64,000 bases of DNA from Clostridia bacterium (GTDB lineage Bacteria; Bacillota; Clostridia; TANB77; UBA1234). Positions 5,920-63,547 of this stretch are shown here, one piece after another. Each line of letters starts with the position of its first letter. Positions within the stretch are counted from its first letter, which is position 1. The notes below the pieces were generated by a model. It did no database searches. It saw nothing but the letters and a program-made list of their open reading frames with translations, and had not been told where the DNA came from. The DNA is taken from contig JAFUGE010000009.1 in NCBI GenBank assembly GCA_017469545.1, positions 1,567 to 65,566 on the forward strand, written 5' to 3'. A program made the translations under genes and the position numbers.

Positions 5920-7320
5920 ATGGCAAAGACGCAGGTTGAAGACATTAATAGAAATATATATGATATTAAAAATGAAGACGAGTATGCGTTTAAGATGCAA
6001 AAGGGTCTAAACCGAGAGGTTGTTTTGGAAATTTCGAAGCAGAAGAATGACCCTGATTGGATGAGGGAGTTGCGTTTAAAGGCTTTGGAGGTTTACAATA
6101 GTTTGGAGCTTCCTACGTGGGGTCCAGATTTGTCAGAGCTTCATATGGACGATATTGCGACGTATGTAAAGCCGAAGTCGAAGCTTAATACGAGTTGGGA
6201 CGATGTGCCAGAAGAGATTAAGAAGACGTTTGATACTTTGGGAATTCCGGAAGCGGAGAAGAAGTCGCTTGCTGGCGTTGGGGCGCAGTACGACTCGGAA
6301 GTCGTTTATCACAGTATGAAAGAAGATTTGCTAAAGCAGGGCGTGGTTTATCTGGATATGGAGTCAGCGGTAAGAGAGTATCCTGATTTGGTAAAAGAGC
6401 ATTTTATGAAGTGCGTGCCGGTAAATGACCATAAGTTTGTGGCGCTTCACGCGGCAGTATGGTCTGGCGGCTCTTTTGTTTATGTGCCAAAGGGCGTCAA
6501 AGTGGATATTCCTCTTCAGTCATATTTCAGGCTTAACTCGCCAGAATCTGGCCAGTTTGAGCATACGCTAATTATTGTGGACGAGGGAGCGAGTCTTCAT
6601 TTTATTGAGGGATGTAGTGCCCCAAAGTACAACAAAGTAAATCTTCACGCGGGATGCGTGGAACTTTACGTGAAAGATAACGCATACTTAAGGTATTCGA
6701 CGATTGAAAACTGGTCGAAGAATATGATGAATTTGAATACGAAAAAAGCGATTGTTGGTAAGAATGCGCAGATAGACTGGGTAACGGGTTCGTTTGGCTC
6801 AAAGATTTCAATGCTTTACCCAATGAGTATTCTAAATGGCGAAGGCGCAAAGACAGAATATACGGGAATTACTTTTGCGGGCAAGGGCCAGAACTTGGAT
6901 ACTGGTTTTAAAGTGATTCACAATGCGCCGAATACTTCTTCTGTTGTGAATTCAAAGTCGATTTCGAAAGAGGGCGGCTCTTGTACGTATCGTGCTTTGG
7001 TGAGAGTTGCCGAGAGAGCGAAGAATGCGAAATGTAGTGTAAGCTGTGAATCGCTAATGCTTGACGACATTTCACGTTCTGATACGATTCCGGTGAATGA
7101 TATTCAAACAGACGAAGTAGAATTTTCACACGAAGCGAAAATTGGTAAGATAAGCGATAAAGAAATTTTCTATTTGATGTCGAGAGGGCTTAGTGAAGAG
7201 GACGCAAGAGCAATGATTGTCAGAGGTTTTGCATATCCGATTTCGAAAGAGTTGCCAGTGGAATATGCTGTGGAAATGAATAATTTGATTAATATGGAAT
7301 TGGAGGGAAGTATTGGTTAG
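5920..7320 (+). CDS. sufB: Fe-S cluster assembly scaffold SufB
   Basis: Length and the 'FxHEAxxGKI...YLMSRGL..EEA' C-terminal signature; follows sufC. Confidence 0.92.
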   Translation: MAKTQVEDINRNIYDIKNEDEYAFKMQKGLNREVVLEISKQKNDPDWMRELRLKALEVYNSLELPTWGPDLSELHMDDIATYVKPKSKLNTSWDDVPEEIKKTFDTLGIPEAEKKSLAGVGAQYDSEVVYHSMKEDLLKQGVVYLDMESAVREYPDLVKEHFMKCVPVNDHKFVALHAAVWSGGSFVYVPKGVKVDIPLQSYFRLNSPESGQFEHTLIIVDEGASLHFIEGCSAPKYNKVNLHAGCVELYVKDNAYLRYSTIENWSKNMMNLNTKKAIVGKNAQIDWVTGSFGSKISMLYPMSILNGEGAKTEYTGITFAGKGQNLDTGFKVIHNAPNTSSVVNSKSISKEGGSCTYRALVRVAERAKNAKCSVSCESLMLDDISRSDTIPVNDIQTDEVEFSHEAKIGKISDKEIFYLMSRGLSEEDARAMIVRGFAYPISKELPVEYAVEMNNLINMELEGSIG

Positions 7321-7321
7321 T

Positions 7322-8368
7322 ATGGAAATTTTAAAAGTAAATGAAACACCAGTGAGAACATCGAGAAATTTTAAAATCAATAATATCAAACTAGAAGACG
7401 TAGTACTTCCTGAAAATGTGATGGAGTTTAAAGGGCTTCAAGTCCTTGGAGCAAGCAAGATAGAGACGGAAGTGGAAGTAGGAAAAGTAACGTATGGTCT
7501 TGGCGATGTGATGCAGGAAAACGTAAGAGAAATGGCCAATAGTAAAATAAGAATTACGGCAAGTCAAAATAACGAAGACGTAAAATTATTCTATACACTA
7601 GACGACGAGAATACAGCTTTAATTCACTATGTTGAGATAGTAGCAGAGAAAGATTTGAATGTGACGATTAAGTATAGTTCGTCGACTAACTATTCGTGTT
7701 TTGTGAATGGCATTATTAAAATAATTGCAAGTGGCAATGCGAAAGTAAATGTCGTTGCCGTGAATTTGCTAAATGAAACTTCTCATTATTTTGTGTCGAT
7801 GGAGAATGTACTTCAAGAGAGTAGCGAAGTGCAGTATACGGTCATTGATTTGGGCGCGAAAAATAGCGTTCAGAATTATTATTCCAACATTGCGGGCGAG
7901 GGCGCCAATAACGAACTAAAAGCGATTTACTTGGGAAGAGAAAACCAAGTAAAGGATATGAATTATATTGCGGAATTGTATGGCGAAAAGACGAATGTTA
8001 CTATCGATGTGCAAGGCGCATTAAAAGATAGTGCAAAGAAAAATTTTAAGGGCACGATTGATTTTAAGAAAGGTTGCAAGAAAGCAAGAGGAGACGAAAA
8101 CGAGTACTGTATGCTTTTGTCGGATAAGGCAAAGTCAATTGCACTTCCGATGCTGTTATGTACAGAAGACGATGTAGAGGGAAATCACGCAACGGCTTCT
8201 GGCAAGCTTGACGACAAGGAGATCTTTTATATTATGTCGCGAGGAATTGAGAAAAAAGACGCAACGAAGTTAATTGTGAAAGCGAGATTCAACAAGATTT
8301 TGGAGAGGATTGCAGACGAAGAAATACGAAATGAAATTGTGCAAGAAATAGATAGGAGATTGGATTAA
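7322..8368 (+). CDS. sufD: Fe-S cluster assembly protein SufD (SufB/SufD family)
   Basis: C-terminal 'GNHATASGKLDDKEIFYIMSRGIEKKDA' paralogous to SufB; operon position. Confidence 0.85.
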   Translation: MEILKVNETPVRTSRNFKINNIKLEDVVLPENVMEFKGLQVLGASKIETEVEVGKVTYGLGDVMQENVREMANSKIRITASQNNEDVKLFYTLDDENTALIHYVEIVAEKDLNVTIKYSSSTNYSCFVNGIIKIIASGNAKVNVVAVNLLNETSHYFVSMENVLQESSEVQYTVIDLGAKNSVQNYYSNIAGEGANNELKAIYLGRENQVKDMNYIAELYGEKTNVTIDVQGALKDSAKKNFKGTIDFKKGCKKARGDENEYCMLLSDKAKSIALPMLLCTEDDVEGNHATASGKLDDKEIFYIMSRGIEKKDATKLIVKARFNKILERIADEEIRNEIVQEIDRRLD

Positions 8369-9583
8369 ATGAATGTAAGAGACGATTTTCCAATATTGAA
8401 AAATAATGATATAGCCTATTTGGATAGTGGAGCGACGACGCAAAAACCTGTGCAAGTCATAGAGAGCATCAAAGAGTTCTACGAAAAGCAAAACGCCAAT
8501 CCTCACAGGGGCGCTTATGCGCTAAGTGTAGAAGCAACGGCAGTGTTTGAGGGGACAAGAGCGAAAGTGGCGAAGTTTATCGGCGCGAGATATCCGGAGG
8601 AAATTATATTTTCCAAGAATGCAAGTGAATCTTTTAATTTGCTCGCGTATTCTTATGGATTAGAAAACTTAAAGTCTGGCGACGAAGTGGTACTTTCGAT
8701 TATGGAGCATCACTCTAATTTGGTGCCTTGGCAATATGTGACGAAAAAAACGGGAAGCACATTAAAGTATCTATATGTGAATAGCGACTATGAATTATCG
8801 GAGGAAGAGATTAAAGAGAAAATTACAGACAAGACGAAAATTGTTGCGATTACGTATGTTTCGAATGTGCTTGGAACGATTAATCACGTCAAAGAAATTG
8901 CGAAATATGCACATAAGAAAGGCGCTATTGTGATTGTGGATGCAACGCAAGCCATTCCTCATATGAGAATGGATGTGCAAGATTTGAATGCAGACTTTTT
9001 AGTTTTTTCTGGCCATAAAATGATGGCGTCATTAGGTGTTGGCGTGCTTTATGGAAAGAGGGAATTGCTTAATAAAATGTCTCCATTTTTATTTGGCGGA
9101 GATATGATTGAGTACGTTTATGAGCAGGATACGACATTTGCGCCACTTCCAAGTAAATTTGAAGCGGGAACGCAAGATGTTGGCGCTGTTGCATCGCTTG
9201 GCGCGGCCATTGACTATATTGAAAATCTTGGTTATGAAAATATTCAGAAAATAGAAAACGAAGTAGTAGAATATGCAATTGAAGAGCTAAGCAAGCTGGA
9301 TTTCTTGACGATTTATAAAACACCAAATAAAGAAAATTTTGTGGGTGTCATTTCGTTTAATATTAATGGCGTGCATCCACACGACGTGGCCAGTATTTTA
9401 GACCAAGAGGGAGTATGCGTGAGATCGGGAAACCACTGTGCTCAGCCGTTACTTCGATATCTTGGCGTGGATTCTACTTGCAGAGCTAGCTTTTATATTT
9501 ATAACACGAAGGAAGATGTGGATCGATTAGTTAGGGGACTAACTAAGACGTATAATATGTTTAAAAAATATTTGCAGAAGTAA
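8369..9583 (+). CDS. sufS: Cysteine desulfurase SufS (class V aminotransferase)
   Basis: 'FSGHKM' PLP-lysine motif; 'RSGNHCAQP' active-site Cys loop. Confidence 0.92.
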   Translation: MNVRDDFPILKNNDIAYLDSGATTQKPVQVIESIKEFYEKQNANPHRGAYALSVEATAVFEGTRAKVAKFIGARYPEEIIFSKNASESFNLLAYSYGLENLKSGDEVVLSIMEHHSNLVPWQYVTKKTGSTLKYLYVNSDYELSEEEIKEKITDKTKIVAITYVSNVLGTINHVKEIAKYAHKKGAIVIVDATQAIPHMRMDVQDLNADFLVFSGHKMMASLGVGVLYGKRELLNKMSPFLFGGDMIEYVYEQDTTFAPLPSKFEAGTQDVGAVASLGAAIDYIENLGYENIQKIENEVVEYAIEELSKLDFLTIYKTPNKENFVGVISFNINGVHPHDVASILDQEGVCVRSGNHCAQPLLRYLGVDSTCRASFYIYNTKEDVDRLVRGLTKTYNMFKKYLQK

Positions 9584-44839: not shown

Positions 44840-47800
44840 TTATTGCAAAATAATTTGTATTGATTTGTTAATGTAGTCAAATGTAATTTCAGGCCAATGG
44901 AAATTTAGTTTTGCTAAATATTCATTCGTGATGTGATTACTTAAAATGACAGACGGCATAAAGGATAGACCACGTTTGCTGTCTAAGTCATTGACGATTG
45001 CTTTTAAGGTGTCTTTTGAATGATCGTCCTTCGAAAGTTCAACTACTTTTTGATTAAATTCTTCGGAAGATAATTCTAAAACATCGATATTTGCATTCTT
45101 AAGCATTCCAAGTAAATTTTTCATTGATAAGAAGTTTTCGTTATATACGTGGAACACTTTGTGATTGTTTTCTTTTAATTTCGCAAGGAGTACTACTACC
45201 TTCGCACATAAATCTACTGGCGTAAATTCTAGCTCTTGCGAAGTCATGCTGGCAGGAATTACTTTATTTAGCACCATAAATTTTAGGATGTTATAAAAAG
45301 CATTTTCGTCTTTGTTTTGTTGAAATTTTCCGTCACTCATACGTGCTGTCAAGTTTCCCACTCTTAATATCGTATAGTTTAATCCTTTTTCTTTGCTTTC
45401 ATAAATGAATTTTTCTGCTTCGAATTTCGAACGAATATAGACATTTTCATTGTAGTTTTGTCCAATGTAAAAATCATTTTCTGTAAATCCCCTGTTAGGC
45501 ATTGCATGGGATACCAAGTAGTTGCCGGATACTCCTGTGGTAGAAATTTGATTGAAATGAATATCAAACTTCAAGCAGAAATCCACTAGATTTTTTACTG
45601 CTGTTACATTGATTAATTCGTGCTTGTGATAATCGCCATAATATTTTACGTTGGCAGCACAGTTGATTACGGCGCTTACCCTTTGGGATAGGGCAGATAA
45701 TTCGTTATCTGGTAGTCCAAAATTTTCTTTTACTAAATCACATTTTACAATATGGACTCTGTTTTCGTCCATTGCTTTTCCTTGAAAATAATAATTCCAC
45801 GTGTTATGCAGTCTTTCGACCACATCGACATTTTGTTTTTCTCTAATGGCACAATAGATGTCGCAATCGGTAGAAATCAAAAGTTCATTTAAAATGTGAA
45901 TTCCCAAATATCCCGTCACTCCTGTTAAGAAGTATCCTTTTTCCGTTTTGCTGCCTAAGTCCAAATTTCCGTCGTGTTTGGCAAGCAAGTCGTTGATATT
46001 GTACAAGGATTTGTCTTCTAAAGTAGCGGAATTACTTACTTCTTTTTTGCTTTCAGCAAATTGCGCAAATAGTTTGACGGTGCGCAATTGATAAAAGTCT
46101 TGCGTTTTAAATTTTAATCCATAAGGAATAAGCAAAGTCTGTATCTGTATGATGGAAAGCGAATCGGCAGAGTAGTTAAAGATATCGTCGTTTACTCCCA
46201 GCTTTTTCACTTTTAAAACTTTCTCAATCACTTCGCATAATATTTTTTCCATTTCTGTCGTAGGTGCGACATATTCTTCTTCCGATACGAAAGTCGTTTT
46301 TGGTTCTGGCAAAGCTTTGCGATTAATCTTATGATTTGGCGTAAGTGGAAAAGCATCCATTTTCACATAACTTGACGGAACCATATAGTTTGGAAGTCTT
46401 GATACTAAATATTTGTGTAAATCGCTTACTGAAATTTCTTTCTCAGAAATGTAGTAAGCACATAAATATTTTTTCCCTTCGCTATTTTCTTTATCACTTA
46501 CGACGGCTTTCGTAATACCAGGATAGTTTGCGATATGCGACTCGATATCTCCTAGTTCAATTCGATATCCTCTGATTTTGATTTGGTTATCGGTTCTACC
46601 AAGACAGATTAGCTCGCCATTTGGTAGCCATTTGGCTAAGTCGCCAGTGTTATAAATGATTTCACTTTCGTTATATGGATTTTTGATAAATTTTTCATTT
46701 GTTAAATTCTCGTTTCGATAGTAACCTTTGGCAACGCCAAGTCCACCAATATAAAGCTCTCCACTAGCATCAAGTGGCAATAACTTTTTATTTTTATCTA
46801 GTATATAAATGGTAGTGTTTTCAATTGGCTTTCCAATCGTAATTTCTTTTTCATTGGTTAATTCTTTAAAAGTAGAATATACCGTTGTTTCGGTTGGCCC
46901 ATACAAATTAAAAACTCTAGCATCTGTTAGCTTTGGAAGTTCGGTTAAAAAGCTAGCAGGGAATGGCTCGCCGCCTAAAATGATTTCTTTTAAAATGTGC
47001 AAGCAATTTAAGTATTGTGAATCTAAGAAAAGTAGTTGAATGCGAGAAGGCGTCGTTAGTATTTTGCAAATCTTTTCTTTTTCGATTAGTCCACTAAGCA
47101 ATACAGGACTCTTTTGTTCGTCTTCGTTTGCCATCACTAAATGTAGTCCAAATAGAAGAGTAGGGAACACTTCAAAAACAAAGATATCAAAACACATCGT
47201 GGTGACAGATAAAACTTTGTTATCAGAAGAAGTAGTATAATCTAATCTTCTTTTCATACTTTCGGCAAAGTTAATGACGGAATAATTTCTAATCATGACT
47301 GCTTTTGGTGTGCCCGTCGTTCCTGAGGTATACATGATGTAGGCAAGAGAGTCTGGTAAGCGATTAATTTTTATATTTTCTGTCTCTTTCTTTTTATCTA
47401 ACGTAATTTGCTCTAAAAGAACAATGTTAGCATCATTGACAATTTTATCTTGCAATTTTTCTGTGGTAATGATGGCGCTTGCTTTGCTATTGTCAATCAT
47501 AAATTCTACTCGGCTCTCAGGGTATTCCGGCTCGATTGGTAGATAGGTTGCGCCCAATTTTAATATTGCTAAAATCGAAATAATAATTTCCGGAGACCTA
47601 GGAAGTAATATTCCTACGATGTCGTTTTGTGCTACTCCATTTCTTGATAGTTCGGCGGCTAACTGATTGGCACACGTATTTAATTCTTGATAGGTGTAAT
47701 GTTTGTCGCCAAATGTCAAAGCCATTACGTCGGGATGCTCTAGCACGCCTTTTTCAAATTCAGAAATGATGGTGGCATTCTTGTTGTAGATATGTTCTGT

Positions 47801-56682: not shown

Positions 56683-57468
56683 ATGGATAAAAATAGTAGT
56701 TAAAAGTTATTTGAAGACAGAAACATTAGGGTTCAATGGAATGACGAAGAGGAAAAGTGGTATTTTTCGGTTGTGGATATAGTTGCCGCTTTAACGGAAA
56801 ATGATTATCAGAGAGCAAGAACTTATTGGAAAGTATTAAAACTAAGGTTAAAAGAAGAAGAAAATGAGTCGGTTACAAATTGTAACCAACTGAAAATGAA
56901 ATCTACAGACGGAAAATTCTATAATACCGATGTTATGAATATCGAGCAGATTTTACGACTTGTTCAATCAATACCATCTAAAAAAGCAGAGCCATTAAAG
57001 TTATGGTTGGCACAAGTTGGAAAAGAAAGAATAGACGAAGCATACGATCCAGAAATAGCAATTAATAGGGCATTGGATATATACAGGAAAAAAGGATATT
57101 CAGAAGAATGGATTAACCAGAGATTAAAAACGATTGACATCAGGAAAGAGTTTACGGACGAATTAAAGAAAAAAGGCGTAAATCAAAGTAAAGATTTTGC
57201 GATTTTAACTAATATTTTGACGCAAGCATGGAGCGGTTATACAGTGAAAGAATGTAAAAATTTAAAGGGGCTAAAGAAGGAAAATTTGCGAGATAATATG
57301 ACAAATATGGAACTTGTTTTAAATATGCTTGCAGAAACTGCATCTACAGAAATTTCCAAAAGTAATAATACACAAGGCTTTGAGAATGCCAAGGAATCAG
57401 TGATAAAAGGCGGGAATATTGCGAAGAGTGCAAAAGAGGCGGAAAGATTGGAAGAGGAAAATAGTTAG
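56683..57468 (+). pseudogene. Bro-N / DinD-like phage-associated DNA-binding gene interrupted by an in-frame TAA
   Basis: ATG 56683 after AGGTGG; TAA at 56701-56703. The same frame continues 'FEDRNIRVQWNDEEEKWYFSVVDIVAALTE' (Bro-N signature) into ORF 56773..57468. Confidence 0.7.
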
Positions 57469-57498: not shown

Positions 57499-58119
57499 AT
57501 GGAAGAGAATGTGAAAAAAGAATTAGAAGAGTTTCAGAATTTTAAAAAGCAGTTTGTATTTGTACAAAAAGAGATTGTGCAAGAGGGAGAAAATTTGTAT
57601 TGTGATGGCGAACTGTTACAGCAGGGGGAAGAGAAGCCGATAGGCATTACGGATAAGTAGATTAATGTGGGATATAAGCTAAAGGGGCCATTTTCTAAAG
57701 CATTATCCAATTTGTTTCCTTACGAATTTACCATTCAAGATAAGAAATTGAGTAGCATTGAAGCATTTTTTCAAGGAATAAAAATAAAAGACAAAACAGC
57801 ACAGGATTTTGTGCTTCGTTATAACGGAATGGATGCGAATAGCAATAAGGCAGCCAGCGATTTTGACTGGAAAGAATCCGGAATGGTATACTGGAAAGGA
57901 ACTCCTATCAAAAGAAATAGTAGGGAGTATGACGATTTAGTAGACGAGTTGTACATATCTGCTATCCAAAATCCTTTGTATCGCAATGTTTTAAAGAATG
58001 TAGATAGGCCAATTATTCATTCTATTGGGGAAGTTGATAAAAAAGAAACTGTTTTTACAAGATATGAATTTGAGTTTATGCTAAACTGTTTGGTAGCGTT
58101 TTTGAAAAGAGGAGAATAG
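57499..58119 (+). pseudogene. NADAR(YbiA/DUF1768)-like gene with an in-frame TAG
   Basis: A 53-aa ORF (57499..57660, RBS GGGAGGT) and ORF 57667..58119 share one frame, split by TAG 57658-57660. 'LSNLFPYEFTIQDKKLSSIEAFFQGIK' and 'QNPLYRNVL' resemble NADAR. Confidence 0.45.
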
Positions 58120-58202
58120 CTGCATTCGTCCTGGGGCAAGGAACACCTTGCCCCATTTTTGCATACAATATAGTGAAATACAAAGAAATTGAGGTGAATA
58201 CT

Positions 58203-58559
58203 TTGGAGAACTATATTGTTGAAGGGGGCAATCGACTAGAGGGGGAAGTCGTGATTTCTGGAGCGAAGAATGCGGCACTACCTATCATTGCGGCTACGAT
58301 ACTAAATCCGGAAAAAATAGAAATTGATAATTGCCCCAATATACACGATGTTGCGATAATGCTCAATATTTTAGAAATATTGGGATGTAAGGTACATATG
58401 GAGAAGAATCAGATGTTGGTGGATACGTCTGATATTAATCAATATGAAATTCCTGAGAATTTAATGCGCGAAATGCGTTCTTCTGTTATTATTGTTGGTG
58501 CAATGCTGGGACGAATGAAGAAGTGTGTGTTTACGTATCCAGGGGATTGCGATTTTTAA
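58203..58559 (+). pseudogene. murA: UDP-N-acetylglucosamine 1-carboxyvinyltransferase, 5' fragment (about 120 of about 420 codons)
   Basis: 'IVEGGNRLEGEVVISGAKNAALPIIAA', 'MRSSVIIVGAMLGR', then 'YPGDCDF*' where MurA reads YPGGCAIG. Confidence 0.8.
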
Positions 58560-58691: not shown

Positions 58692-59198
58692 ATGAAAAAA
58701 TTTGATGGAATTTGGATACCATACGATATATTAACGGATACTCATTTATCAGATAAACAAAAAATCATTTTATCTATTGCGTTATATTTTAGTCAGCAAA
58801 AGACAGGATGTATTGTTGGAAACGAATATCTAGCAAAGCTATTAAATATAACAGATGATAGAATATCAAAGCTGGTTAGTTCACTAAAGAAAAAAGGATA
58901 TGTTGATGTAATATTAAATCGTAAGCATGAAGATAGCAAAGTAAGAAAAAGAGAGATAGTTGTTTTAAAGGATGAGCTGATAAAGAAGTATCATAAAAGC
59001 TCAAAGCAAGTAGGTGAAAATAACTACTTGAGTAGTGAAAAACAACTAGATGAAATAGGTAAAAAGGACGGAGATATAATAAATAATAATACTAATAAAT
59101 ATATAAGAAATAATGGTAAGCAGTTTCAAGGATACACACCTTATAGAGATTCACAGTATGAAAATATTGACTGGAGCAAATATTATAAAAATTATTAA
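58692..59198 (+). CDS. Winged-helix DNA-binding protein, plasmid/phage replication-organiser-like
   Basis: 'LSDKQKIILSIALYFSQ....C.VGNEYLAKLLNITDDRISKLVSSLKKKGYV' wHTH pattern; Asn/Lys-rich tail. Confidence 0.5.
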   Translation: MKKFDGIWIPYDILTDTHLSDKQKIILSIALYFSQQKTGCIVGNEYLAKLLNITDDRISKLVSSLKKKGYVDVILNRKHEDSKVRKREIVVLKDELIKKYHKSSKQVGENNYLSSEKQLDEIGKKDGDIINNNTNKYIRNNGKQFQGYTPYRDSQYENIDWSKYYKNY

Positions 59199-59402: not shown

Positions 59403-59708
59403 ATGAAAAATAAACAAATTAATATTCGATTAACAGAAAAAGAATTAGCATATATAAAACGCAAATCAGAAAGAGCAAAAATGGATATGACAAGATTTGT
59501 TATAACAGCCGTTTACAAAAATAACATAAATGTGATAGAAGGACTACTACCATTGTCAACCGAATTAAGACATATTGGAAATAATTTAAATCAGTTAACA
59601 AGATTGTGCCATGAAGGAAGAATTAGTTGTATTAATCTAGATAAATTCACCTACCAAGTAGGTGAAATATGGAAGAAGTTAAATGAGTTAATGAAGGAGA
59701 AGAAGTAA
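59403..59708 (+). CDS. mobC: MobC-family mobilisation (relaxosome accessory) protein
   Basis: 'IRLTEKELAYIKRKSE', 'ELRHIGNNLNQLTRLCHEG' MobC signature. Confidence 0.8.
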   Translation: MKNKQINIRLTEKELAYIKRKSERAKMDMTRFVITAVYKNNINVIEGLLPLSTELRHIGNNLNQLTRLCHEGRISCINLDKFTYQVGEIWKKLNELMKEKK

Positions 59709-59981
59709 AAATTTGTGAAGGCAATAAGTGGAGTTAAGTTCAAAGCACTATTGTAAATATAGAAAGTAATGGTGTTTTTATATTGCTAAAATATTGATTT
59801 GTTAATGTAATTTATGCTAAAATATACACAGATAGGCAAACTATCAATATTTAAAATAAGTGAACAAAATTTGAAGAAAAAAACTCTAATTTTAATTACC
59901 TTACTTGATATGCAATATTGGAGTGATGAAAATAGAAAGAGGATATCTAATAAAATTATTATTCAAATAAGGAGTAATAAT

Positions 59982-61943
59982 ATGGATTTAAATGACAGAA
60001 GCTATGAAGGTATAATTGAAAAATTAAATAGAGGATTAATAAACTTTTTAGACATTGATGCCATTAATGAAATCGTTAATGGCTTGGCAAGAGACTCTAA
60101 AGCAAGAGAACAGTTCATTAATGTGATTAAGGCTTATGTGAAAAAAATAGATGTAAATGTGCCTTTGTCAAATATTGACGTAACTGATTATAATTTTGAA
60201 AAATGGCGTGGCTTAATGCTTATAATAAATGATAAAGACTTTATAGAAGAATGCATAGAAGATTATTCTGATGAGGCACAGTCAATAGCAAGACGTTCGT
60301 TTGCAAGTCGTATAACATACGAACAATCTAATCTAAGTGAGAAAAGTAGAAATGAATCGCGAGTTCACAGTTATTTTACAATGGATTCGGATGTAGCTCT
60401 AAGATATCATGATGAAGAATTAAGGTATATAAGCGAAGATAATCTTATTGTAAGAATTGAGGATGCTATAGATGCTATAACAATTTCTAACGAAGATTTA
60501 GAACGCCTTAAGGCTAATTGCAGAATACAAAACGAGACATGGTTTGAAAGAGACAAATATACTATAGATGAAATTCGCAATATTTCTAATAAGCTAAAAA
60601 ATGATATTCTTAAAGGTATAGAAAAACCAAAAAGCAATGATTTTGAAAGCCAATTTGAGGTATTTTCAGAAATATGTAAAAGATTAGCTGCACATATTGA
60701 GTATGACGACGATGAAATCGAATATTGCAAAAAAATGGGCATAGGTTGTAGAGACCATGATACTTACACAGTAAGAAATGCTATTTTAAAGGGTAGAAGT
60801 GTTTGTAGTGGAAATTCAAAAACGCTGAAACTTGCATTAAAAATGCACGACATTGAATGTGAATACATTAGTGGAAATCCTGAAATAAAAGACAAAGAGA
60901 ATATCCCACTAGAAGATCAACACGGACATGCATGGAATCAAGTCAAAATTGGAGGGCATTGGTTTAATTTTGACTTAACATGGGCAAGAGATAGAATTGT
61001 AAATGAAAATGGACTTGTTACTGTTGAATTGTTAAAAACGGATTCGGAATTTTCTGATCATGATAAATATGGGAAAAATCGACCTAGTTATGAGCACAAG
61101 TGTGAAACATCAGTATTTGATTTGGTTGATGATGAATTTATATTGAGGCACAGCGGTAGTATATTAGATAAGATAAATTACTTGCACACTAGAGACGATG
61201 AAACAAAAAAGAAATGGATTGATATTTTAATAAGTGATAATAATGAGCAAAACAAAACAAAAGCTTCGTTAGAGTTAGATGAAAGGCTGATTGCTGGTTT
61301 AATCATATCTCTTGATAATCAAGATTATTTAAAAAATTGTATAGAAAGCGAAAAGTTAAAATATCGAACACATGATTTATTAATAGCAACACAAGATAAG
61401 GAATATATGAAAGAATGGGTGAAAGGACAGCTTGAATCAAAGACTAAGGACTTATCTGGAACACTAGCTGTTGCAATTGAAACAATGGATGGCGATATTA
61501 TAAAGAAAGTAATAATGCAAGGCAGCAATACACTTACTGAATACGATATGTATTCAGCTGCAATAAAAACAAAAGATCCAGCTTTTGTAGCGGAGTGCTT
61601 TCAAAATGATATGTTCCCTGATTTTGTTGATCAAGACACTTTAGAAGAAGATATAAGAAACGGAGAAGATGATAAATTTTTAGTTGCTTGGCAAGAATAC
61701 ATAGCCGGGAAAACATTGGTAAAGCATGTGAATGAGAAATCAGAAGATGTAGCAGAAATAGAAGATGATAGTCAAGAAGGAATTAATTTACCGCAAGAAG
61801 ATAAGGAAGTAGTAACTACTGAAGAAACGAAGCAAGATATTACAAGTAACAATAAACGCCTATTAGGTAGAATGGTTGACAAATACATTAACTTGTTTAA
61901 AATAACAAAATCAGAGCTAAAAGAAACATGGCTACGGCTTTAA
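59982..61943 (+). CDS. Cassette copy 2, gene A: transglutaminase-like (Cys-His-Asp) protein with the helical repeats C-terminal to the core
   Basis: RBS AAGGAG. 'SVCSGNS' (Cys 60804-60806), 'GHAWNQVKIGGHWFNFDLTW' (His 60927-60929, Asp 60972-60974). Repeats 'LDNQDYLKNCI', 'ATQDKEYMKEW', 'KTKDPAFVAECF'. Confidence 0.75.
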   Translation: MDLNDRSYEGIIEKLNRGLINFLDIDAINEIVNGLARDSKAREQFINVIKAYVKKIDVNVPLSNIDVTDYNFEKWRGLMLIINDKDFIEECIEDYSDEAQSIARRSFASRITYEQSNLSEKSRNESRVHSYFTMDSDVALRYHDEELRYISEDNLIVRIEDAIDAITISNEDLERLKANCRIQNETWFERDKYTIDEIRNISNKLKNDILKGIEKPKSNDFESQFEVFSEICKRLAAHIEYDDDEIEYCKKMGIGCRDHDTYTVRNAILKGRSVCSGNSKTLKLALKMHDIECEYISGNPEIKDKENIPLEDQHGHAWNQVKIGGHWFNFDLTWARDRIVNENGLVTVELLKTDSEFSDHDKYGKNRPSYEHKCETSVFDLVDDEFILRHSGSILDKINYLHTRDDETKKKWIDILISDNNEQNKTKASLELDERLIAGLIISLDNQDYLKNCIESEKLKYRTHDLLIATQDKEYMKEWVKGQLESKTKDLSGTLAVAIETMDGDIIKKVIMQGSNTLTEYDMYSAAIKTKDPAFVAECFQNDMFPDFVDQDTLEEDIRNGEDDKFLVAWQEYIAGKTLVKHVNEKSEDVAEIEDDSQEGINLPQEDKEVVTTEETKQDITSNNKRLLGRMVDKYINLFKITKSELKETWLRL

Positions 61944-62008
61944 AAGAAGTATATCAAAAAATAATGATGAGCACGAATTTATAGAAAATGGAGATGATAG
62001 AGGTGAAC

Positions 62009-62635
62009 ATGATGATTGAAAGTGAGAGTTTGAAAAAATATATATCATCCTTGTTAAATAAAAGTGCTGATGAATTAACCGTAGAGGATTTGAATAAAAT
62101 TGACTATATTAGTTTGAAAAAGATGAATGCATTATACCAAGAGACAGATTGCATAACAGGTGATTTAATTCAATTTAAAAATTTAAAAGGATGCACATTA
62201 TTTAAGTTTGATGTATCAGAAAGTGATATTAAAAATTTAAATAGGATTCCTAAATTAGAATCAATTTGTTTTGACTTTTGTGAATTGAATGGACTTAATC
62301 TTTCAATAAATGAATCTATCAATAGATTTTATTTTAACATGTGTAATGATTTAAAATTAAAGCAATTTAAAGAATTCACAGCAGAATCTTTAACGATAAT
62401 TGGGGATGAAAATAGGAAGACGGAATTAAATATTAATGACATTGAAAGAATGGATAATTTAAAGAGATTGTCTATAAATAATTATGAAATAAAAAATATA
62501 GGAATGATTATGGATGTTGCTCCTAATATAGAGTATATAAATATAGACGGTTCTACAGTTGATTCAACAGAGTTAAATGAAATAAAAGGTAAAATTGAAA
62601 TTTCAAATAATGAAAGATTTTTATTAGTGCCATAG
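62009..62635 (+). CDS. Cassette copy 2, gene B: LRR-like protein
   Basis: RBS AGAGGTGA; 'IPKLESICFDFCELNG', 'MDNLKRLSINNYEIKNI', 'APNIEYINIDGSTV', collinear with 54616..55248. Confidence 0.6.
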   Translation: MMIESESLKKYISSLLNKSADELTVEDLNKIDYISLKKMNALYQETDCITGDLIQFKNLKGCTLFKFDVSESDIKNLNRIPKLESICFDFCELNGLNLSINESINRFYFNMCNDLKLKQFKEFTAESLTIIGDENRKTELNINDIERMDNLKRLSINNYEIKNIGMIMDVAPNIEYINIDGSTVDSTELNEIKGKIEISNNERFLLVP

Positions 62636-62647
62636 TTAAAGGAGAAT

Positions 62648-63067
62648 ATGATGTCAAACACTATTCAAATGAAATCTTATAAAGAAGTTTTAGTAATTTT
62701 AGACGAATTAGATTTGCTAAAAGAAATACCAAATGAAATAATTCAACATATGCAAGCCAAACAAGATAGAAAATGGAATTTTACTTTTGATAAAAATATG
62801 CCAATCGAAGCACAGAAAATTACAAGAGATACAGCAAAATTATTGTCATTATTGTATTTAGGATATATTTGTAATGATGTGGATGAAAAAGAAAAATTCA
62901 ATAAAATTCTTGAGCAAAACGAAAAAAGTGCCAAAGAACAGTTTAATATTAATATTATAAGACAAAAAGTGGATAATTCTAAAGACGAGCATCAAATTGT
63001 TCCATGCGTAAGAGAATCTTTGTGGCAGAGGTTCATTAGTAAGATAAAAAAGTTATTTAAGAGGTAA
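62648..63067 (+). CDS. Cassette copy 2, gene C: small charged helical protein
   Basis: 'VLVILDELDLLKEIPNEIIQHMQ...W.F.FDKNMPIEAQKITRDTAKLLSLLYLGYICND' is collinear with 55266..55703. Start 62648 or 62651. Confidence 0.55.
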   Translation: MMSNTIQMKSYKEVLVILDELDLLKEIPNEIIQHMQAKQDRKWNFTFDKNMPIEAQKITRDTAKLLSLLYLGYICNDVDEKEKFNKILEQNEKSAKEQFNINIIRQKVDNSKDEHQIVPCVRESLWQRFISKIKKLFKR

Positions 63068-63199
63068 ATACATAAGGTTAGTGTTAAATTTTGCACTATC
63101 CTTTTTTATTACAAAAGATGCCGAATTGTTGCTAAATAAGGCATTTTATGGTATAATTATAATAGAATTCTATTAAATATGATAGATGGGGTGATTGAT

Positions 63200-63547
63200 A
63201 TGAAAAGTAACGAAGAATATAACACTGAAGTACAGGAAATATTGAGCAAATACAAGAGTGTAAGAGACAAATATAAAATGTTAAAAACAATTTTTTTATT
63301 AATAATGATTTTATCTGTAATAGCATTGCTAATCGTATTTGCTGTTCCAACTATTAATAATAGACTATTACTAATAGCTATTGCTTTTGTTTTTATTATA
63401 ATTTCAGAACTATTAAATATAGTATTCGGAGCAAAGTTATATAATATTGGGAGAAAAGTAATTGAAGAAGTTGAACAAATGGATATAAAAGATGAGGGAG
63501 TACAGGAAATAATGATAGAAAAAGTTGAGGATTTCTTTGGTATATAG
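63200..63547 (+). CDS. Hypothetical 2-TM membrane protein
   Basis: RBS GGGGTGA; two hydrophobic helices between charged termini. Confidence 0.45.
   Translation: MKSNEEYNTEVQEILSKYKSVRDKYKMLKTIFLLIMILSVIALLIVFAVPTINNRLLLIAIAFVFIIISELLNIVFGAKLYNIGRKVIEEVEQMDIKDEGVQEIMIEKVEDFFGI

Follow-up and report, generated by a model that had tools for sequence, protein, structure and literature searches.

Does the region at positions 59982-63067 of the Clostridia bacterium DNA analysed here (contig JAFUGE010000009.1; the whole stretch of 64,000 nucleotides is termed the window) hold a second copy of the three-gene cassette located at 52231-55703 and, if so, where did this copy come from and what might such a module do? 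The genes of the two cassettes are designated A1, B1, and C1 (copy 1, 52231-55703) and A2, B2, and C2 (copy 2, 59982-63067). A encodes a predicted transglutaminase-fold protein, B a short leucine-rich-repeat (LRR) protein, and C a small protein predicted to be helical. A conserved, uncharacterised three-gene operon is present at 59982-63067 as an intact second copy, which is deeply diverged from copy 1. All peptides quoted by the first-pass annotation, which had proposed this second copy, are located in the three open reading frames (ORFs), and the proteins match gene by gene in BLASTP searches, with 33% identity over 234 aa for A1 and A2 (E value 3e-30), 37% over 190 aa for B1 and B2 (6e-38), and 37% over 134 aa for C1 and C2 (1e-26). 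Thus, the B and C pairs are significantly similar in alignment software. Pairwise global alignment results in identities of 28.6% for A, 34.4% for B, and 38.3% for C, in agreement with the earlier estimate by eye of roughly one third.

The block-by-block alignment that had been described for all three proteins applies to B and C, but not to A, in which the transglutaminase core of about 230 aa alone can be aligned. Helical repeats with the motif TKDxxFI lie N-terminal of this core in A1 and C-terminal of it in A2, indicating that the domain order has been rearranged. Searches of the window with family profiles detected each of the genes A, B, and C exactly twice, as well as one fragment of a C gene. 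The two-copy arrangement is not an assembly artefact because both copies recur in several independent assemblies, including an NCBI metagenome-assembled genome (MAG) labelled 'Clostridia bacterium'.

The two copies differ in composition. The genes of copy 2 have GC contents of 25-31% and GC contents at third codon positions (GC3) of 22-24%, compared to 32-37.5% and 31-35%, respectively, for the genes of copy 1, while 22 long genes within 1-51 kb of the window, which served as core reference, show a GC content of 38.8 +/- 3.0% and a GC3 of 37.8 +/- 5.4%. The visibly higher AT content that had been reported for copy 2 is therefore found in the computed values as well. No similarity between the copies was found at the DNA level. 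Identity at third codon positions is only 33-43%, and synonymous divergence (dS) according to NG86 is about 2.4 or above, or undefined. Calculation of dN/dS for the gene pairs, which had been suggested as a check, was thus possible but uninformative, since dS is saturated or undefined. This saturation of synonymous sites itself excludes a recent duplication.

Evidence for a separate origin of the copies comes from their relatives in other genomes. In a tree of 73 catalytic cores, A1 is the sister of a homologue from L021, a Clostridia MAG from roe-deer omasum, with 60% core identity, whereas A2 groups with a homologue from locus L006 and ranks only 25th of 72 among the neighbours of A1. Hence, the A proteins of the window are not each other's closest relatives. 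For A1, B1, and C1, the best match is encoded in L021 in all three cases, while the best matches of A2 and C2 are located together on L108, a sheep-rumen contig. In a direct comparison with L108, identities of 47% for A, 70% for B, and 74% for C were obtained, so that L108 encodes the closest known relatives of all three copy-2 proteins. Since all genes of copy 1 find their best relatives in L021 and those of copy 2 in L108, each cassette has been passed on as a unit, and this genome acquired its two copies in separate events. Apart from the cassette, L021 and the window share no synteny. Contig L108 itself has a length of 3385 nt with 27% GC and consists only of A-B-C and an intergenic region of 248 nt. 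It begins and ends with the same 55 nt, which corresponds either to a circle of 3,330 nt or to a collapsed tandem array of the cassette, and its A gene is split by a frameshift.

That copy 2 arose from copy 1 by a recent local tandem duplication followed by neutral drift would be in line with the spacing of only about 4 kb, the common strand, and the identical gene order of the copies. Against this stand a protein identity of just 29-38% together with saturated dS and the loss of any DNA similarity, a difference in GC3 of about 10 points, the closer relatives of each copy in other genomes, the unlike domain order of the A proteins, and the presence of unrelated mobile and defence genes and of a murA fragment between the copies. 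Such a duplication is extremely improbable. The independent acquisition that the first-pass annotation had favoured is upheld by the missing DNA similarity, the saturated dS, the core tree, and the best matches in L021 and L108, and copy 2 is very probably a separately acquired second copy on a mobile island.

Features of both cassettes and their surroundings (positions refer to the window)
Feature	Position	Strand	Description
tRNA-Arg(acg)	52047-52123	+	directly upstream of copy 1; ARAGORN and Rfam
Terminator-like hairpin	52127-52153		after tRNA-Arg(acg); terminator scan
A1	52231-54594	+	787 aa (773 aa from ATG at 52273); predicted cytoplasmic transglutaminase-fold protein
B1	54616-55248	+	210 aa; LRR protein
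C1	55266-55703	+	145 aa; unannotated C family, C profile E 8e-36
Strong terminator-like hairpin	55771-55807	+	16 pairs; closes the copy-1 operon
Bro-N protein	56773-57468	+	Pfam Bro-N; candidate defence model PDC-S13, E 2e-99 (PADLOC)
Phage gp30.3-like gene	57667-58119		after the Bro-N gene, between the two copies
Truncated MurA-like fragment	58173-58559	+	128 aa, N-terminal part only; Pfam EPSP_synthase positions 1-116 of 417
HTH_36 protein	58692-59198	+	replication-initiator-like; GC 27%
MobC/NikA-like protein	59403-59708	+	mobilisation accessory protein; Pfam NikA-like 1e-13, MobC 5e-12; no relaxase gene next to it
Relic of third C gene	59853-59972	+	matches C profile positions ~52-92; in-frame fusion with the 5' end of the long A2 ORF
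A2	59982-61943	+	653 aa (709 aa if from 59814); predicted transglutaminase-fold protein
B2	61988-62635	+	215 aa; LRR protein, B profile match
C2	62648-63067	+	139 aa; C-family protein
122-aa protein	63179-63547	+	predicted membrane protein; GC 26%; downstream of C2; no copy-1 counterpart

The surroundings of copy 2 agree with the earlier description of this segment as mobile-looking. Copy 2 follows genes for HTH_36 and MobC/NikA proteins within an AT-rich island that starts at the truncated murA gene. The murA fragment ends with the residues YPGDCDF in front of its stop codon, and the AT-rich block begins just downstream. In L001, a longer contig covering the end of the window and the region beyond, this block continues at 25-33% GC for at least 13 kb; in the 10 kb past the window end, the 3' remainder of murA was not found. 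The 122-aa membrane protein gene may belong to the transcription unit of copy 2, and it is followed in L001 by genes for proteins of 307 aa and 337 aa with no assigned function. Further into the AT-rich island (L001 15923-22130, about 6-12 kb past the window end), two ThsB-type TIR genes are encoded together with PDC-M50A/B, followed by genes for a DUF6076 protein, a Fic-like protein, and an OLD-type AAA/ATPase-TOPRIM protein; no ThsA gene was seen in this stretch.

No relaxase or integrase is encoded by any ORF within 58.6-64 kb, and none is listed in the 10 kb beyond. Similarly, neither att-like direct repeats around the island nor repeats of the 3' end of tRNA-Arg were found, and the DNA of 58.6-64 kb did not match any plasmid. 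Whereas an integrative mobilisable element would combine a relaxase, an integrase, and att repeats with MobC, here MobC/NikA and HTH_36 alone are present; an HTH_36 gene is also located upstream of a C-type cassette in L017. Because no relaxase, integrase, or direct repeats were found, the segment is filed as a remnant or island, and its gene content looks like that of a mobilisable element that has decayed within a composite island.

A tRNA-Arg gene ends about 100 nt upstream of copy 1. Two divergent tRNA-Arg genes, tRNA-Arg(cct) at 51879-51955 on the minus strand and tRNA-Arg(acg) on the plus strand, mark the boundary between core genes and the region with both cassettes. Between the copies lie four genes, encoding a 211-aa protein with no assigned function on the minus strand, the Bro-N protein, the gp30.3-like protein, and the murA fragment. 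On the core side, the window contains a gene for a single-module nonribosomal peptide synthetase of 1,440 aa (44840-49162, minus strand) with condensation, adenylation, carrier, and terminal reductase motifs recognised by eye, adjoined by a 4'-phosphopantetheinyl transferase gene (49253-49840, plus strand).

The fragment of a third C gene precedes A2 directly. It corresponds to residues 15-54 of the long A2 ORF (KISEQNLKKKTLILITLLDMQYWSDENRKR) and reaches 20-25 bits in hmmsearch, with E values of 1e-5 over all ORFs of the window and 5e-9 in a local search. The fragment matches dozens of C proteins at their residues 44-93 with up to 62% identity, but neither C1 nor C2. Upstream of the ATG at 59982, which is Met57 of the 709-aa ORF, an AAGGAG ribosome-binding site is located at 59969-59974, and the A homologue of L108 begins with MDLNDRSYE at the same point. 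Therefore, the true start of A2 is at 59982, as had been assumed by the first-pass annotation, and the first 56 codons of the long ORF are owed to the C relic. A possible source of this layout is provided by other elements. In L018-L020, the order NikA, relaxase, large protein, small protein, and C is intact, and in L055, a relaxase and a 318-aa protein are followed about 450 nt further on by a C gene, which lies behind a short antisense ORF. The arrangement in the window would be explained by a deletion that took away the relaxase and the greater part of such a cassette.

C-type cassettes follow mobilisation genes in three independent contexts, namely the window, L018-L020, and L055, and in all of them they are located directly downstream of MobC/NikA-relaxase genes in the same orientation. 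This could mean that the cassettes are cargo of mobilisable elements for establishment or anti-defence, with an enzyme that is made or transferred at conjugative entry and disarms proteins of the recipient, while the terminal helix of C is a signal for the coupling protein or the type IV secretion system (T4SS) and not an anchor. Positively charged C-terminal tails are typical of T4SS substrates, and the occurrence of large 'polyvalent' enzymes on conjugative elements has been described. However, many cassettes are located on chromosomes and lack mobilisation genes in the flanking sequence that was retrieved, none of the cassettes was seen next to a gene for a T4SS or coupling protein, and the element of the window has no relaxase. 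Establishment cargo is thus an improbable role for the cassettes.

Which activities can be assigned to the encoded proteins? Both A proteins match the Pfam family Transglut_core (PF01841) with 32.1 bits (A1) and 34.1 bits (A2) at a cutoff of 23. The core with its Cys-His-Asp triad comprises about residues 570-720 of A1 and is followed by a tail of about 65 residues, while in A2 it comprises about residues 250-440 of the long ORF and is followed by an alpha-solenoid and a C-terminal helical hairpin. In 53 aligned sequences and likewise in the 8 full-length relatives, the residues C331, H372, and D387 (A2 numbering) do not vary. An AF2 model of A2 has a mean predicted local distance difference test score (pLDDT) of 74; in residues 250-640, most blocks of 10 residues exceed 85 and three blocks reach 74-77. 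Foldseek searches with this model returned the structure 9crn first (E 2.6e-5). The A profile searched against PDB sequences found 9crn, TglA of S. pyogenes, with an E value of 1.4e-18 and 4xz7 with 2e-9, and 3isr is also among the closest structures. Among the papers that could be searched, no functional description of 9crn, 4xz7, or 3isr was found. None of the six proteins A1 to C2 has a signal peptide or transmembrane segment. These features identify A as a cytoplasmic enzyme with a transglutaminase/papain-like fold and an intact Cys-His-Asp triad, fused to an alpha-solenoid. A is probably active because the triad is invariant in 53 sequences and the fold matches transglutaminase-like structures.

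Several known groups of transglutaminase-related proteins were considered for A and rejected. The MAG6410-family transglutaminase-related lipoproteins (NCBIfam NF045980) are matched with only 59.7 and 47.8 bits at a cutoff of 450 and over the core only, and A has no hydrophobic N-terminus. Neither the secreted bacterial transglutaminase-like cysteine proteinases (BTLCP) nor spore-coat Tgl is among the Pfam matches of A1 and A2 at E<=1, and a signal peptide or transmembrane segment is missing. An assignment to polymorphic toxins (LXG, Rhs, CDI) is contradicted by the lack of a Pfam trafficking domain and by the location of the core, which is internal in A2 and toward the C-terminus in A1.

By its sequence, B is a short LRR protein. 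The B-family profile matches the LRR of Roco (5il7) with an E value of 4e-12 as well as internalins and ANP32, and B1 matches Pfam LRR_4 with 25.5 bits, slightly under the cutoff of 27.

For C, modelling predicts a small helical protein ending in a basic amphipathic helix. In the AF2 model of C2, a four-helix N-domain, which is predicted with confidence, is followed by a long helix, a disordered linker, and the basic amphipathic C-terminal helix (SLWQRFISKIKKLFKR), which has a hydrophobic moment of 0.89. Across 70 members of the C family, the mean moment of the terminal helix is 0.80 compared to 0.46 for shuffled tails, with a net charge of +4.8, and the tail is retained after linkers of very unlike lengths, as in P0198 and P0242. 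C matches no family in Pfam, NCBIfam, PHROG, or PADLOC apart from a chance-level PADLOC match of C1 (E 0.006), no significant fold match was found for its model in PDB and BFVD with Foldseek, and its profile found nothing among PDB sequences. Despite this lack of annotation the family is large, with 4,740 clusters at 50% identity at E<=1e-3 and 2,965 clusters at E<=1e-10. Another architecture of the C family is represented by P0131 (718 aa), which has a weak VWA match (E 5e-4, below the Pfam gathering score), two C N-domains, and a further C-terminal domain. A gasdermin-protease system was considered for the module and rejected, as C is all-helical with no significant fold match, which speaks against a substrate with a gasdermin fold next to A.

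Full-length A proteins are rare, with 8 matches in an index of 5.8 billion proteins. When GTDB species genomes were scanned with a pattern, a related core was found at 323 loci, nearly all of them from uncultured Clostridia of the gut or rumen. In the best 80 of these 323 loci, A, B, and C are adjacent in 12, A and B in 21 (18 with the order BA and 3 with AB, all of them lacking C), and A and C in 8, while A stands alone in 39. The orders ABC, BCA, BA, AB, CA, AC, and CBA recur, and BAC and ACBA were found in single loci. Two natural fusions join the modules in one chain: P0008 consists of LRR, pentapeptide repeats, and the transglutaminase core, and P0173 of the transglutaminase core and C. 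The adjacency counts, permuted orders, fusions, and inheritance as units suggest that A, B, and C act together. At least two cassettes per locus are present in L004, L025, L037, L055, and L059. A third search for homologues of the A core returned mostly short proteins consisting of the transglutaminase domain only.

C genes also follow genes for unrelated large proteins, two of which contain HExxH motifs recognised by eye only. These other large partners gave no significant family in searches against Pfam, NCBIfam, and PDB sequences, and their interpretation as HExxH 'metalloprotease' or YRG 'ADP-ribosyltransferase', which was taken from motifs recognised by eye, is therefore weak. Homologous proteins of 52-71 aa are encoded between large proteins with HExxH motifs and C in L015 (5622-5985), L018 (5793-5987), and L010 (5564-5981), which points to a second, four-gene type of C cassette. 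In L006, three paralogues of about 250 aa (27-38% identical) and a 137-aa gene, for which no Pfam family was found, are located directly upstream of B-C-A (405-2779). Downstream of a cassette encoding a 380-aa protein, a 498-aa protein, and C, a comparison of L012, L101, and L103 with L102 (about 6500-8500) revealed unlike integrase-bearing islands in some samples and an empty site in others. The islands carry either ParE with DUF6076 or a DpnII-type restriction-modification system, and the site is an insertion hot spot.

The association of one small family, C, with many unrelated large proteins has led to the consideration of a toxin-antitoxin or addiction module that stabilises the island, in which A and the other large partners are toxic, C is a promiscuous neutraliser, and B tunes specificity. 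The hyperpromiscuous antitoxin domain PanA reportedly shows a pairing pattern like that of C. The location of C-type cassettes on small mobilisable elements, the presence of ParE near a cassette in L012 and of AbiE in L010, and the existence of an A-C fusion would fit such a module. With 500-800 aa, however, the partners are far above the usual size of toxins in these systems, C has no recognisable DNA-binding domain, the 18 BA and 3 AB loci without C are hard to square with an essential antitoxin, and a fused A-C protein would be a self-neutralised toxin. An addiction module of this kind is considered quite improbable.

As a mechanism of the module, LRR-guided, membrane-tethered protein modification is proposed. 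B, and perhaps also the solenoid of A, would select a protein target, which A would covalently modify or cleave by deamidation, cross-linking, or proteolysis, while C would use its terminal helix to hold or regulate the complex at the inner membrane face. The module could then serve in conflict between elements, be it in defence, addiction, or element establishment. This mechanism, which is derived from sequence features, is put forward tentatively and is somewhat more likely to need revision than to hold. For the combination of a separately acquired second copy on a mobile island with the proposed mechanism and conflict role, the balance is about even. The most likely interpretation is an accessory conflict module and not a core function of the cell. 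A conflict role is favoured because the cassette occurs in multiple copies, in shuffled order, and at scattered sites, because C is combined with unrelated partners, and because C cassettes lie downstream of relaxase genes. In this window, copy 2 is found among defence-type genes, with PDC-S13 and, nearby, ThsB, PDC-M50, and OLD-like genes. The claim of the first-pass annotation that diversified paralogues of one module are typical of conflict systems is plausible but unproven, as no PADLOC model is matched and most related loci are flanked by housekeeping genes.

A number of results weigh against a conflict role and the proposed mechanism. In PADLOC-DB v2, no match was found for A1, B1, A2, B2, and C2, and the single match of C1 is the chance-level one mentioned above. 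Searches of the six proteins against PADLOC, PHROGs, and NCBIfam gave nothing beyond the transglutaminase core, and a scan of IMG/VR viral contigs with a C protein and the A alignment found no relatives. The two closest genes on either side of the loci in other genomes are mainly housekeeping genes, such as those encoding PcrA, ZIP, ABC transporters, enzymes of fatty-acid synthesis, and release factors. No enrichment of defence genes was found among the neighbours, and PADLOC analysis of 132 flanking genes matched only PcrA-type helicases to GajB models, a match that is uninformative with regard to defence. One A-B-C cassette lies between groEL and an alaS-like gene, and one clade keeps B-A next to pcrA, both of which are in line with a cellular role. 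Membrane binding by the C tail, formation of an A-B-C complex, and catalysis are all predicted from sequence, and the N-domain of C has no known fold, so that C could equally be an anchor, an inhibitor, a sensor, or a substrate. A literature search on operons with transglutaminase and LRR genes yielded nothing relevant; one match concerned secreted cellulosomal dockerin proteins.

Some of these observations would suit a cellular, non-conflict role, in which a membrane-associated transglutaminase-type enzyme cross-links or trims proteins of the envelope, the division machinery, or the spore coat, and copy 2 is a passive xenologue on the island. In addition to the many loci among housekeeping genes and the synteny with pcrA in one clade, sporulation genes adjoin some loci (SipL and YunB at locus L004, genes for a sigma factor and a PRC-barrel protein at L009, YpeB elsewhere), and a sigma-A-like extended -10 element precedes A1 as judged by eye. 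Tgl of B. subtilis is a precedent for cross-linking of the spore coat by a transglutaminase. Nevertheless, the genomic position differs in almost every genome, and even L021, which is closest to copy 1, lacks synteny with the window. Paralogous copies and partner swapping occur within one genome, the gene order is permuted, and many loci have lost B or C. For a core function, the proteins show a very low identity between species, C-type cassettes are carried by mobilisable elements, and no Tgl family is among the Pfam matches of A1 and A2 at E<=1. Because the neighbours differ in nearly every genome, the sporulation link is kept as a rival explanation only, and a cellular role is judged unlikely.

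The narrow result, a diverged second copy on an AT-rich mobile island, is solid and by itself of ordinary interest. If the proposed interpretation holds, a recurrent operon of transglutaminase-fold, LRR, and C genes that no database names offers a concrete starting point for tests on the 'dark matter' of gut Firmicutes that have not been cultured, and it may reveal a new pairing of a repeat-domain recogniser with a papain- or transglutaminase-like enzyme at the membrane. In a broader view, the C family could mark a large undescribed class of modular cassettes of gut Clostridia, in which a membrane-tethering adaptor is combined with interchangeable large enzymes and which move as 3-kb units and on mobilisable elements as a new defence or establishment system. 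This generalisation is rather doubtful at present. If it were true, the two copies and the third C relic would be three instances of such cassettes in one 12-kb stretch, and the unannotated C family, with thousands of clusters in gut and rumen Clostridia, would be a common partner of several unrelated large enzymes.

As far as the tools and libraries used show, the A-B-C module is undescribed, and its resemblance to known systems is limited to single aspects. Small integrative and mobilisable elements of Firmicutes, as in L018-L020, contain Phage_rep_org_N, integrase, NikA, relaxase, a 612-aa protein, a 64-aa protein, and C, and the window likewise contains HTH_36, MobC/NikA, the C relic, and A2-B2-C2 in AT-rich DNA, although in this case no relaxase or integrase gene or flanking direct repeats were found. 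The proteins with the structures 9crn, 4xz7, and 3isr share with A the transglutaminase/papain-like core with its Cys-His-Asp triad, but they comprise only 290-400 aa, whereas A has 650-790 aa with an alpha-solenoid and is encoded in an operon with LRR and C-family proteins. C resembles promiscuous toxin-antitoxin partners of the PanA type and polymorphic effector cassettes in being combined with unrelated large proteins (transglutaminase-fold, HExxH-motif, and others), but it has no homology to known antitoxins or immunity proteins, and its partners are much larger. With the membrane-targeting sequences of MinD and FtsA, C has no sequence or fold similarity, and its membrane binding is predicted only; what they have in common with C is a layout of a folded N-domain, a variable linker predicted to be disordered, and a conserved basic amphipathic terminal helix. 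LRR-guided effectors and sensors, such as IpaH/SspH LRR-NEL ligases, Roco proteins, and NLR/Avs-type proteins, differ from the module, which has no NEL, NACHT, STAND ATPase, or secretion signal and in which B is usually a separate protein of 175-215 aa, so that the likeness is architectural only. It consists in the combination of a repeat-domain specificity module with a Cys-based enzyme, which are joined in a single chain in P0008, and the best structural relatives of the B profile by sequence are the LRRs of Roco and internalins.

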